This document shows positions 647 to 10,117 of a DNA stretch of 10,117 nt, one piece after another (within the stretch, counting starts at the first letter, position 1; every line of letters begins with the position of its first letter). Below the pieces are notes generated by a model. That model saw nothing but the letters and a program-made list of their open reading frames with translations. It was not told the DNA's origin and ran no database searches. The stretch lies in the IMG/VR virus record IMGVR_UViG_2526164647_000013; one strand, written 5' to 3'. The stretch is from a virus. Taxonomy: Duplodnaviria; Heunggongvirae; Uroviricota; Caudoviricetes. Both the position numbers and the translations under genes were made by a program.

Positions 647-661
647 GGTAATGACTCCAAC

Positions 662-1165
662 TTACTGATAGTGTTTTATGTTCAGATAATGCCCGATGAC
701 CTTGTCATGCAGCTCCACCGATTTTGAGAACGACAGTGACTTCCGTACCAGCCTTGCCAGATGTTGTCTCAGATTCAGATTATGTCGCTCAATGCGCTGA
801 GTGTAACGCTTGCTGATAATGTGCAGCTTTCCCTTCAGGCGTGATTCATACAGCGGCCAGCCATCCGTCATCCATACCACGACCTCAAAGGCCGACAGCA
901 GGCTCAGAAGACGCTCCAGTGTGGCCAGAGTGCGTTCACCGAAGACGTGCGCCACAACCGTCCTCCGTATCCTGTCATACGCGTAAAACAGCCAGCGCTG
1001 ACGTGATTTAGCACCGACGTAGCCCCAATGTTCGTCCATTTCAGCGCAGACAATCACATCACTGCCCGGTTGTATGCGCGAGGTTACCGACTGCGGCCTG
1101 AGTTTTTTAAGTGACGTAAAACCGTGTTGAGGCCAACGCCCATAATGCGTGCACTGGCGCGACAT
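662..1165 (-). CDS. insB: IS1 InsB reading frame (expressed as InsAB' by -1 frameshift from insA)
   Basis: 167-aa ORF ...[33 protein letters not shown]...[16 protein letters not shown] typical of IS1 InsB; overlaps the insA 3' end, where an A6C slippery run (TTAAAAAACTC on the coding strand) lies. Confidence 0.9.
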
Positions 1166-1359
1166 CCGACGCCATTCATGGCCATATCAATGATTTTCTG
1201 GTGCGTACCGGGCTGAGAGGCGGTGTAAGTGAACTGTAGTTGCCATGTTTTACGGCAATGAGAGCAGAGATAGCGCTGATGTCCGGCAGTGCTTTTGCCG
1301 TTACGCACCACGCCTTCAGTAGCGGAGCAGGAAGGACATCTGATGGAAATGGAAGCCAC
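1084..1359 (-). CDS. insA: IS1 InsA (transposition inhibitor, N-terminal part of the InsAB' transposase)
   Basis: 91-aa [46 protein letters not shown]... with zinc-finger-like CxxC...CxxC and helix-turn-helix region, as in IS1 InsA. Confidence 0.9.
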
Positions 1360-1414
1360 GCAAGCACCTTAAAATCACCATCATACACTAAATCAGTAAG
1401 TTGGCAGCATTACC

Positions 1415-2054
1415 TGACCCGTTATCTAAAACAGAATTCAATGCATTAATGGAAAGTGAAAAAGGACAGAGCCAAAACTTGTGGAAATTTGCCGTTTACT
1501 CCGGGCTTCGTCACGGGGAACTGGCAGCTCTGGCGTGGGAGGATGTGGATTTCGAGAAGGGAATTGTGAATGTCAGAAGAAACCTGACGATACTTGATAT
1601 GTTCGGTCCCCCAAAAACAAATGCCGGGATCCGGACGGTAACATTACTGCAGCCGGCTCTTGAAGCACTGAAGGAGCAATACAAACTGACCGGGCATCAT
1701 CGCAAAAGCGAAATCACTTTTTATCATCGGGAGTACGGCAGAACTGAAAAACAAAAACTGCATTTTGTTTTCATGCCCAGGGTGTGTAACGAAAAACAGA
1801 AACCTTATTACTCGGTAAGCAGTTTGGGTACAAGATGGAATGCAGCAGTAAAACGTGCTGGTATTCGCCGCCGTAATCCGTACCACACGCGACATACTTT
1901 TGCCTGCTGGCTGTTGACGGCAGGAGCGAACCCGGCATTTATAGCCAGCCAGATGGGGCATGAAACTGCGCAAATGGTGTATGAAATTTACGGTATGTGG
2001 ATTGATGACATGAACGACGAACAGATAGCCATGTTGAATGCGCGGTTATCGTAG
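1415..2054 (+). pseudogene. int: Phage-type tyrosine integrase, C-terminal catalytic-domain fragment
   Basis: Translation contains catalytic-core motifs of tyrosine recombinases: SGLRHGELAALAWEDVDF (box I Arg), HTRHTFACWLL (H-x-x-R) and GHETAQMVYEIYGMW (Tyr region). The frame is open from the IS1 boundary; about 120-140 codons between the N- and C-terminal fragments are missing. Stop at 2052-2054. Confidence 0.8.
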
Positions 2055-2256
2055 TTGCAAAGTTTGCCCCCAATTTGCCCCATTTAGTACCAGAGAACTG
2101 AAATAATGCAAGAAAATCAACAAATTACAAAGAAAGAACAATACGACCTGAACAAGTAAGGGCAAAAATCACAACTATCTGACTCATAAGTATTTTATTT
2201 ATTTTTCAATATGTTAAACATTATCAGCGACAACAATAAGCTACGATAACCCACTC

Positions 2257-2289
2257 TTTTTTGCCCCTTTTTTGCCCCTTTTTTGCCCC
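2257..2289 (+). repeat. Three perfect tandem copies of the 11-bp unit TTTTTTGCCCC, with further degenerate copies at 2063-2081 and 2300-2317
   Basis: Direct reading: TTTTTTGCCCC at 2257-2267, 2268-2278 and 2279-2289; TTTTGCCCC at 2300-2308; TTTTTGCC at 2310-2317; TTTGCCCCC and TTTGCCCC at 2063-2081 immediately after the int stop. All copies are in the same orientation. Confidence 0.9.
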
Positions 2290-7939: not shown

Positions 7940-7962
7940 AGTTTTTCTCGCGATAAATTAAA

Positions 7963-8507
7963 TCAGGAAGAAATTTCCGGAGAAGCGGGCCATTCAATGG
8001 CGTTGTATGAGGTTTTATCAGTGATGACACTGAAATCCATCGCCTGCAGCGATTTCGCGTAAATGCGGTACGCTTTCAGTTTTTCCCGGTCTTCGTCGCT
8101 GATTAGCCCCAGCAACAGGTCTTCTTCCCATTCCCCTGTCCGGGCACTGACCTGAGCCAGAAGGGCATCACGCTCATCTTCCGCTTTGAGTCTGTAGTCA
8201 AAGACAAATTCATCATTGCGGTAAAACCAGTAACCCGGCGCGGTAATGCGGCGGTTGGCGGTAATATCAGGAACTTCAATAACACTGGCGTTACGGGGTT
8301 CAATGCCTGTCACATCCTTACCGACCCACACCACGCGACCGTCTCCGGTGTAAGTTATTTTAATTGTGTCCTGGCGAAATTCTTCAGCTCTTCATACCAG
8401 TTTTTTCCGTCTTCTGAAAAAAGCCAGGTGACCGAATATCGTTTTGTCATCTGATATTGTTCTGCTGTTTTCGGATTACCCGTAGTAATATTTTTTAAAT
8501 GCAACAT
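7963..8507 (-). pseudogene. tfa: Tail fibre assembly protein (Tfa, P2 gpG / lambda Tfa family), frameshifted
   Basis: From the ATG at 8507: [44 protein letters not shown], then a stop; the other frame continues [43 protein letters not shown]... to the stop at 7963. Both halves align with P2 gpG as I recall it ([24 protein letters not shown]...[22 protein letters not shown]...VVEVPDITSNRR). The junction AATTTCGCCAG is consistent with a 1-nt deletion (TTCCGC to TTCGC) near 8376. Confidence 0.75.
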
Positions 8508-8530
8508 TGTTAAATACTCGCTACGTTATA

Positions 8531-8883
8531 CTAGGTGCCATTAATCAGTTTTTGCAGTGGTCGGTAATACACACCGTCAACGTTATCCGCTGAGTTACGG
8601 CCGGTATCCGATATCGCCATCCCTGACAGCCCGTGTCCCGAAGGTGCGCAAAATCTCCACGAAACGGTGTTACTGCCGGGGCTGTAATACATTTCATGGC
8701 CATACCGTACATCCTGTACCCCCTCTGTTCGATATTTATAGCGGGCATCGAAGTTTCCGTAATTTAACGGAATTACCTGTCCGTTAACAGTGAACACTAT
8801 GCTGTTATCCGGGTTTCTCTGGCTGAAAAAATGCCAGCCTGAATCATCGCCAAGCTCTGCAACAACAGGCCTGGATGGATTAC
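8531..8883 (-). pseudogene. C-terminal fragment of a phage tail fibre gene, 5' end removed by the IS600-like element
   Basis: About 117 codons of open frame ending at a stop at 8531, 23 nt upstream of the tfa start (the fibre-then-tfa order of P2 H-G and lambda stf-tfa). The first five codons of the six-frame ORF (to 8899) lie inside the IS end. Sequence itself is not diagnostic; the call rests on synteny. Confidence 0.55.
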
Positions 8884-9804
8884 TGAGGTGTACTGGCAAT
8901 AGCGGACACTACCATTTGTTCTTTTTTTAAGCAGCCATCTGATGATATTTTTCCCTGAAGGCTGCCGGGGAGATATTCCCCAGACGAGAGTGACGACGCT
9001 GACGATTGTAGAAAATCTCAATGTATTCCCGTATTACTGAGATGGCTTCATCCCGGTTATTAAAACGATAGTGGCTCAGGCTCTCATTTTTCAGCGTTCC
9101 CCAGAAGCTTTCCATCGGAGCGTTGTCGTAACAGTTACCTTTACGCGACATTGATGTTTTCAGACCAGACTGCTCCTGTATGACCCGGTAATCGTATGCG
9201 CAGTACTGTGAACCTCGATCAGAGTGGTGGATTAGCCCGGCAGGTGGGCGCTGGCTCCTGAGCGCCATAAACAGGGCTTTACCTGTCAGCTCTTTTGTCA
9301 TGCGCTCTCCCATGGCGTAGCCGACAATTTCACACGTATAAACATCTTTGATGCCAGCAACATACGTCAGGTCCGCCACCCAGACCTGATTTGGTGCTGT
9401 AGGAGCGAACGTCTGGTTCAGCAGATTTGGCGCAACTGGCAGATTGTGGTTCGGGTTCGTAGTCGCTCTGAACTTGCGTTTCTGCTTACAGCGTAGCCTC
9501 AGCTCCTTACGAAGACGTGCCAGTCGGTCACGACCAACGATGATGCCATTCTCTGCCAGCTCCGTCTGGAGCCGCCGGGTTCCATATGTTTCGCGAGTGC
9601 GGATATGTGCCACCTTAATCTCCAGTTTTAGCCGCTCATCACTTTGTTTCTGTCTGAGGGTTCATGCTGTACCCAGTTGTAATAACCGCTCCTGGATACA
9701 CCAAATACCTGACACATCGCTTCAATGGGAAATTGTTGTCGCCATTGTTCGATTAACGCGTATTTTTCAGCGACTCCTGTGCAAAATACGCTGTTGCTTT
9801 TTTT
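8884..9804 (-). mobile_element. IS3-family element remnant (IS600-like): right end plus most of orfB; orfA and left end absent, boundary with IS1 at 9804/9805
   Basis: Candidate terminal sequence TGAGGTGTACTGGCAATAGCGGACACT starting at 8884 on the + strand (TGA end); orfB at 8927 and above; the orfA-frame C-terminus KKATAYFAQESLKNTR is readable at 9751-9804 on the minus strand, with the A7G slippery run abutting the IS1 end. Confidence 0.7.
8927..9804 (-). pseudogene. IS3-family (IS600-like) transposase OrfB, frameshifted in its N-terminal region
   Basis: Six-frame ORF 8927..9613 encodes the DDE core (...VWVADLTYV...HHSDRGSQY...SMSRKGNCYDNAPMESFWGTLKNE...). The upstream part (YALIEQWRQQFPIEAMCQVFGVSRSGYYNWVQHEPSDR) is in another frame and stops after ...NKVMSG; the frames are offset as expected for a 1-nt deletion in a short A run near 9645-9650. 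Confidence 0.8.
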
Positions 9805-10117
9805 GGTAATGACTCCAACTTACTGATAGTGTTTTATGTTCAGATAATGCCCGATGACCTTGTCATGAAGCTCCACCGATTTTGAGAACGACAGTGACTT
9901 CCGTACCAGCCTTGCCAGATGTTGTCTCAGATTCAGATTATGTCGCTCAATGCGCTGAGTGTAACGCTTGCTGATAACGTGCAGCTTTCCCTTCAGGCGT
10001 GATTCATACAGCGGACAGCCATCCGTCATCCATACCACGACCTCAAAGGCCGACAGCAGGCTCAGAAGACGCTCCAGTGTGGCCAGAGTGCGTTCACCGA
10101 AGACATGCGCCACAACC
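9805..10117 (-). mobile_element. IS1, second copy, partial (runs off the window), same orientation as the first
   Basis: Begins with the same inverted repeat GGTAATGACTCCAACTTACTGATAGTG at 9805; differs from the first copy at 4 positions within the 313 bp that can be compared. Confidence 0.95.
9820..10117 (-). CDS. insB: IS1 InsB, C-terminal part (5' portion beyond window end)
   Basis: Translation ...[94 protein letters not shown]; differs from the first copy at W/C and I/V. Confidence 0.9.

Follow-up and report, generated by a model that had tools for sequence, protein, structure and literature searches.

We analysed a stretch of 10,117 nucleotides (hereafter the window) from the IMG/VR virus record IMGVR_UViG_2526164647_000013 (Caudoviricetes), in which the sitABCD operon lies between two copies of the insertion sequence (IS) IS1 in the same orientation. 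Our analyses suggested that this pair very probably goes back to two independent, in-place IS1 insertions in a decaying Rac-type prophage of the Shigella flexneri sit island, whereas a genuine Tn9-like composite transposon of 9.9 kb that moved here with sitABCD as its cargo is hardly credible. The sit island, its IS load and its instability have already been described, and the feature thus belongs to a known island of a well-studied pathogen.

Genomes compared

An exact look-up of the SitD protein led to complete chromosomes with the same layout as the window. Together with ten places found through the flanking xis gene, these made up 13 distinct S. flexneri genomes. The closest relative, CP097828.1 (locus L004), differs from the window at 7 positions over 10,117 nt. 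CP026788.1, LR213455.1, CP044155.1 and CP034060.1 are S. flexneri of serotypes 2a, Y and 1b (PMC9455713). The locus of enteroinvasive Escherichia coli (EIEC) CFSAN029787 is cited below as L016, and that of S. flexneri AR-0424 (CP044155.1) as L011.

Structure and flanks of the two IS1 copies

Copy a (647-1414, minus strand) is a complete IS1 of 768 bp, with terminal inverted repeats of 23 nt (647-669 and 1392-1414 in a repeat search) and open insA and insB' frames joined by the A6C frameshift motif. Its transposase matched NF033558 in a profile scan (148 bits for the InsB' part and 89 bits for the InsA part), and gene calls in the relatives give a fused IS1 transposase of 232 amino acids. Copy b (9805-10117, minus strand) is represented by its first 313 bp, being cut by the end of the window. 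A direct repeat of 300 nt (647-946 and 9805-10104) places both copies in the same orientation around a segment of 8,390 bp (1415-9804). An earlier description of this DNA, made without database searches (the sequence-only reading), had given the same positions and orientation and had counted four differences in 313 positions; the base-by-base comparison reproduced this count exactly, with mismatches at window positions 710/9868, 820/9978, 857/10015 and 947/10105. That reading would have been refuted by copy b being a truncated remnant, which does not hold, as the orthologous copy is complete at 768 bp in 11 of the 13 S. flexneri genomes; like copy a, it has the terminal repeat at either end, the A6C motif, and insA and insB' frames that are open. 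Copy a is present with identical flanks in all 13 genomes, and copy b in 11.

The 9-mers on the two sides of copy a are unlike (GTTCCGGTG and TGACCCGTT), so that this copy lacks a target duplication, as had been noted from the sequence alone. Copy b lies inside an IS600 element. Intact IS600 copies run on with AATATATC, whereas the DNA past copy b is CGCGTTAAG and unrelated; since it is unlike the continuation of IS600, copy b is also without a 9-bp duplication.

Evidence against transposition as a composite

Tn9 consists of cat flanked by direct IS1 copies; it is compact, transposes as a whole and generates a 9-bp duplication. The window is like it in having two IS1 copies around a cargo operon, both complete (copy b as judged from its orthologues) and directly oriented, and both composite transposition and deletion between the two copies are possible in principle. 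To this extent the Tn9-like architecture proposed by the sequence-only reading was borne out. The window differs from Tn9 in that the unit is 9.9 kb long, has no flanking duplication, occurs at one site only and has "ends" that lie within a continuous prophage, and a reading of it as a transposed unit has to be given up on several grounds.

The outer 9-mers of the pair share no duplication: the left one is GTTCCGGTG, and the right one, read in near-identical genomes, is CGCGTTAAG in L003, L004 and L005 or CTTTAAGTT in L011. A third IS1, in L002, served as a positive control: it is flanked by a 9-bp duplication without mismatch (TACTAACAG), so that a duplication of this kind can be recognised in these genomes. 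Furthermore, the DNA outside the pair is related to that inside, for the integrase gene intR is split across copy a and the early genes of the same Rac-type prophage continue on the left. The comparison of related genomes and plasmids that the earlier reading had proposed gave no second site either: no record among 20,395 from E. coli, and no plasmid among the 5,000 best matches, holds at least 80% of the window, at most 66% of it is found in one place in complete E. coli genomes and plasmids, and in the 13 S. flexneri genomes the unit occupies a single locus. In addition, the sit module that other replicons have in common with the window is much smaller than the IS1-bounded unit, covering only ∼2312-6003 in IncF plasmids (∼96.8% identical) and only 2330-5995 in a sequence type 131 (ST131) chromosome; EIEC and S. 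flexneri serotype 6 share the window from the attachment (att) core at 2113 onward, beside uspF and without any IS1. Taken together, the flanks, the boundaries, the position of copy b within IS600, the occurrence of the unit at one locus and the small sit module show that this arrangement did not originate by transposition of the IS1-bounded unit.

Prophage context of the pair

The DNA on both sides of copy a belongs to one integrase region. The 5' fragment of intR (475-646, plus strand; open reading frame (ORF) 475-651; Arm DNA-binding domain PF12167, E 3.9e-20) corresponds to L016 3001-3172 and sits directly outside copy a, beyond the IS1 pair, and the 3' fragment (1415-2054, plus strand; tyrosine recombinase catalytic domain PF00589, E 4.6e-24) corresponds to L016 3597-4236. 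The protein-family scan that detected the C-terminal recombinase fragment at 1401-2054 also bore out the integrase fragment, tail-fibre remnants and IS600-like remnant that had been reported within the segment. The intact intR of EIEC CFSAN029787 runs collinear with window 301-646 and 1415-2155, except that 422-424 bp are gone at the IS1. Upstream of intR lies a 5'-truncated Rac-type excisionase gene, xisR' (301-473, plus strand; ORF 306-473; PF06806 in the relatives' gene calls). Its first ∼43 nt were cut off by an IS3-family element, as homology begins at window 301, equal to L016 2827, and xisR starts at L016 2784; the xisR region is 99.7% identical to that of EIEC CFSAN029787. In the relatives, xisR, gam, recE and kilR of the same Rac-type prophage lie to the left of copy a. 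An intR split by copy a, with the prophage continuing outside, indicates that copy a landed in a prophage that was already present.

Downstream of intR, an uninterrupted Rac-type phage attachment site, attP, was identified at 2063-2308 (plus strand). Its 43-bp core (2113-2155) is common to both ends of the EIEC prophage, the intR-ttcA end and the uspF-sit end, which marks it as the att core; it lies inside a copy of the first 50 nt of ttcA (window 2106-2155). As the integrase fragment and sit are joined through this uninterrupted core, the window holds an attP. The motif TTTGCCCC occurs six times in the window, all within 2063-2308 (0.39 expected by chance). These repeats are divided two and four between the sides of the core, their number varies between strains, and they are candidate integrase arm sites. 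The intR and xisR genes, an att core matching ttcA and tail-fibre genes in phage order identify the window as a remnant of a Rac-type lambdoid prophage.

With attP uninterrupted within a chromosome, int and sit stand in circular-phage order and not at opposite prophage ends as in EIEC. Tandem lysogeny and IS-mediated integration are possibilities for chromosomal phage DNA in this permutation. E. coli Jnd12 (L017/L028) has the same int-attP order with intact genes and no sit, and its intR is internal, between early, lysis and head genes on one side and tail genes on the other, which suggests tandem or mosaic prophages as a possible source of the int-attP-b-region order.

Jnd12 shares int-attP with the window through 2318 and diverges after that point. 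For this reason, we place sit immediately past the P' arm, as cargo in the b-region of the phage and before its tail-fibre genes; it travels with the phage, in a module of ∼3.7 kb adjoining attP, rather than as part of an IS1 composite.

An 11-nt tandem repeat, CTTTTTTGCCC, was also seen in the P' arm (window 2256-2291, 3.3 copies), ∼240 bp upstream of sitA and at the left edge (2312) of the plasmid-shared sit module. It is the same in L004, L021 and L026, EIEC and Jnd12 have two copies, and most S. flexneri genomes carry a version that is 41 nt shorter.

Origin of the pair and instability of the locus

The preferred reading of these data can be put as follows. The window would be the int-attP-b-region-tail-fibre stretch of a Rac-type lambdoid prophage, with sitABCD as cargo between attP and the tail-fibre genes. 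An abundant Shigella-type IS1 would have inserted into intR, giving copy a, and a separate insertion into a resident IS600 would have given copy b. Each target duplication would then have been lost, either in an adjacent deletion caused by IS1 or in recombination with a further IS1 copy, at the cost of ∼424 bp of intR at copy a and of the remainder of IS600 at copy b; the sequence-only reading had likewise taken the missing duplication at copy a as a trace of IS1-associated deletion or recombination, and the loss from intR agrees with this. On these grounds the pair would neither have brought sit to this place nor mark the limits of the mobile sit module.

Sister genomes show IS-associated losses at the same locus. 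L011 lacks 1,955 bp that begin at the exact outer end of copy b, with the IS kept (L011 15562 against L003 15563-17517), which is the classic signature of an IS1 adjacent deletion and may represent one caught between sister strains. L002 and L026 (CP182555.1 and CP034060.1) equal L004 minus everything between two direct IS600 copies, copy b included, and a single intact IS600 (L002 13846-15331, and likewise in L026) stands against L004 14716-20321. The L004 stretch absent there holds the truncated IS600, copy b, a pRha fragment, another IS, a gene for an integrase of 534 amino acids, an ORF6N gene and the second IS600. By parsimony, this state is best read as a deletion between IS600 copies and not as ancestral. 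L002 and L026 differ in the number of 11-nt repeats upstream of sitA, a hint at independent deletions.

Direct repeats of 768 bp standing 8.4 kb apart could allow RecA-dependent deletion of the segment including sit and, in principle, its low-frequency mobilisation as a long composite. A deletion between copies a and b would leave the junction AAATCAGTTCCGGTG-IS1-CGCGTTAAGTTC with sit lost, and a circle or a tandem amplification would give GCTGTTGCTTTTTTT-IS1-TGACCCGTTATC. Past 10117, the source sequence would be expected to continue with a complete 768-bp IS1 followed by CGCGTTAAGTTC (or a lineage-specific flank), and not by GTTCCGGTG. The pair is a plausible recombination substrate, as the sequence-only reading had proposed, and this fits the IS-mediated events in the sister genomes; the deletion between the two copies themselves was not observed.

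Several points weigh against the reading of two in-place insertions and the role in deletion that goes with it. No deletion between copies a and b was found in the 13 S. flexneri genomes (a xis-anchored search over 24 of 456 index blocks, in which rare deletions could be missed), so that a recombination role of this particular pair is something we infer. Adjacent deletion and recombination between IS1 copies are indistinguishable as the cause of the missing duplications, and what lies past copy b in the source genome is inferred from near-identical genomes. The retention of sit in all 13 genomes would fit selection for sit in this small sample.

The unlike flanks might instead stem from homologous recombination between IS1 copies at different places, either two nearby insertions collapsing into one or an exchange with distant copies during large Shigella rearrangements, an explanation that we regard as unlikely though not negligible. 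The copies in the fetched loci are near-identical (0-4 differences in 768), recombination between IS600 copies is evident at the locus, and in the orthologous copy IS1 position 211 is not the same in all strains, pointing to exchange or conversion among copies. Against it stand the L011 deletion, which starts at the exact end of copy b with the IS retained, and the small, local deletion of 424 bp in intR, both of which are still compatible with recombination of two once-separate insertions. Somewhat less doubtful, and concerned with fine detail only, is the suspicion that the differences between copies a and b and the other private changes of the window result from errors of sequencing or assembly: just seven positions separate the window from CP097828.1, several of them homopolymer or short-gap changes (the sitA A6/A7 run, a 1-nt gap at 9646 and a 27-nt gap in IS600), and positions 64 and 301 of copy b have their state in none of 22 other copies. 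On the other side, positions 174 and 211 are shared with CP097828.1, so at least two of the four IS1 differences are real lineage variants, and the architecture is unaffected by such errors.

The wider comparison of IS1 copies leads to a similar view of these four differences. Shigella-type IS1 copies in the fetched loci differ at 0-4 of 768 nt, and orthologous a/b pairs in sister strains are 1-2 nt apart over the full length, or 1-4 nt apart where the end of a locus cuts copy b, at positions that vary from strain to strain. The variant at IS1 position 174 is confined to copy a of the lineage of the window and L004, position 211 is polymorphic between strains even at the same locus, and positions 64 and 301 are private to copy b of the window. 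The divergence of 4 in 313 may therefore reflect later point changes, conversion among copies or sequencing error and says little about origin. The earlier argument that it excludes a recent duplication is accordingly weak, correct as its count was, since sister pairs differ by only 1-2 in 768 and the differences are private or polymorphic.

It is very unlikely that the pair is at present an active translocatable unit by which the 8.4-kb int'-attP-sitABCD-tail' segment is excised or transposed, in the form of a composite or a circle. No past event of that kind was found in the data examined, with which low-frequency activity remains compatible, as both IS1 copies look functional. Were it so, chromosomal sit would have a route to plasmids or other sites in Shigella.

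An origin of the pair in a single intramolecular replicative transposition was considered separately and rejected. Such events of IS1 lead either to a deletion with one copy or to an inversion with inverted copies, and these established outcomes exclude direct repeats.

The sitABCD operon

The operon encodes a Mn/Fe ATP-binding cassette (ABC) transporter, made up of the substrate-binding protein SitA (2527-3440), the ATPase SitB (3440-4267) and the permeases SitC (4264-5121) and SitD (5118-5975), all on the plus strand. SitB passes the equivalog cut-off of NF011630 (593.7 bits against 393), and sitA, sitC and sitD are so annotated in RefSeq DNA that is 98-99% identical. Sit contributes to the intracellular growth and virulence of Shigella (PMC3852070).

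The operon had been called intact, and all four genes are indeed present as ORFs (2550-5975), yet the Met1 frame of sitA (from 2527) is broken. The A-run at 2538-2543 (codons 5-7) has six residues in the window against seven in all of 33 other sit loci from S. flexneri, EIEC, ST131 and IncF plasmids, and with A6 the annotated frame of 304 amino acids reads MHSIKK*, a stop after six codons. What is left open is the ORF from Met9 (2550-3440, 296 amino acids), and the loss of residues 1-8 would remove two lysines at the start of the signal peptide. Either genuine slippage or a sequencing error may lie behind the A6 run, or it may be of no consequence, should translation in fact begin at Met9; some annotation pipelines call Met9 as the start even with A7. 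A SitA of 296 amino acids was also considered as a marker for the A6 frameshift elsewhere and was discarded as not diagnostic, because many pipelines call Met9 despite A7.

Several E. coli assemblies with sit beside uspF (L029-L036, 14189-15391) have a major facilitator superfamily transporter gene between sitD and the tail-fibre genes, which indicates that the cargo content between attP and the tail fibres varies.

Relation to known systems

The closest counterpart is the sit pathogenicity island of S. flexneri, which concerns the same organism group and the same locus type and shows nothing essentially different. In its section on Fisher et al. 2009 (Infect Immun 77:1992), a review attributes the instability of this island to homologous recombination (PMC7545054, section 28). 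Knowledge of the repeats by which sit can be deleted matters for the stability of strains such as live vaccine candidates and laboratory stocks. The loss of sit is reportedly RecA-dependent.

The Rac prophage of E. coli has the order intR-xisR ... stfR-tfaR and is integrated at ttcA. Rac and the prophage of EIEC CFSAN029787 resemble the window in intR/xisR (99.5% identical) and in an att core that equals the ttcA 5' end. The Rac site of EIEC CFSAN029787 is occupied by a single prophage, with the ends uspF-sitABCD-tail fibre and xisR-intR-ttcA; here, too, sitABCD is placed after the att site and before the tail-fibre genes, and the DNA is 98-99% identical over window 2113-8782. In contrast to the window, which joins both through attP, sit (by uspF) and intR (by ttcA) are ∼45 kb apart in this integrated prophage; moreover, the genes of the window are IS-disrupted.

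IncF/ColV-type plasmids carry the same sit module with an upstream IS1 in the same orientation. However, only one IS1 is present in them; it belongs to another isoform (91-94% identical) and lies 355 bp from sitA, on its upstream side, against ∼1.1 kb in the window. A second copy is lacking, as are int, attP and tail-fibre DNA. The plasmid and window arrangements of IS1 and sit are independent events. Plasmid matches of ∼4.5 kb that looked like IS1-sit-IS1 composites were rejected as an artefact, as the one IS1 present there matched both query copies.

Other features of the window

The 3' end of an IS3-family insertion sequence occupies 1-300 (plus strand), with a transposase C-terminus that ends at 258 and is named "IS3 family transposase" in E. 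coli records.

Tail-fibre remnants span 6176-8899 on the minus strand. They comprise a DUF4376 tail-fibre-associated gene (6176-6799; PF14301), a frameshifted prophage tail-fibre N-terminal-domain gene (6750-7939; ORFs 6750-7457 and 7562-7939), a truncated tail-fibre assembly gene (7963-8334; PF02413) and a tail-fibre C-terminal remnant (8531-8899). The N-terminal-domain gene is frameshifted by a 79-nt deletion at window 7592-7603, present in the window and L004 in comparison with L003, L005, L011 and EIEC.

The IS600 interrupted by copy b is preserved in its 3' part only (8871-9804, minus strand), the rest being missing beyond copy b, and a protein-family scan found an IS3-family transposase with an rve domain at 8927-9613. 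Compared with every other IS600 fetched, it has a private gap of 27 nt at ∼9356, with GC microhomology at its ends, in addition to the 1-nt gap at 9646.

In at least two relatives, L021 and L027, genes like yebU-yebV-yebW and ipaH lie at most 10 kb to the left of the island. The S. flexneri ipaH-type effector gene (LRR_TTSS and NEL domains; L021 5166-6881, L027 1463-3178) adjoins a tail-fibre gene with DUF4376, some kb from the sit region on its left side and close to the yebU/yebV/yebW-like genes. This placement puts another effector in a b-region position of a prophage and indicates that the left side of the island has been rearranged between strains.

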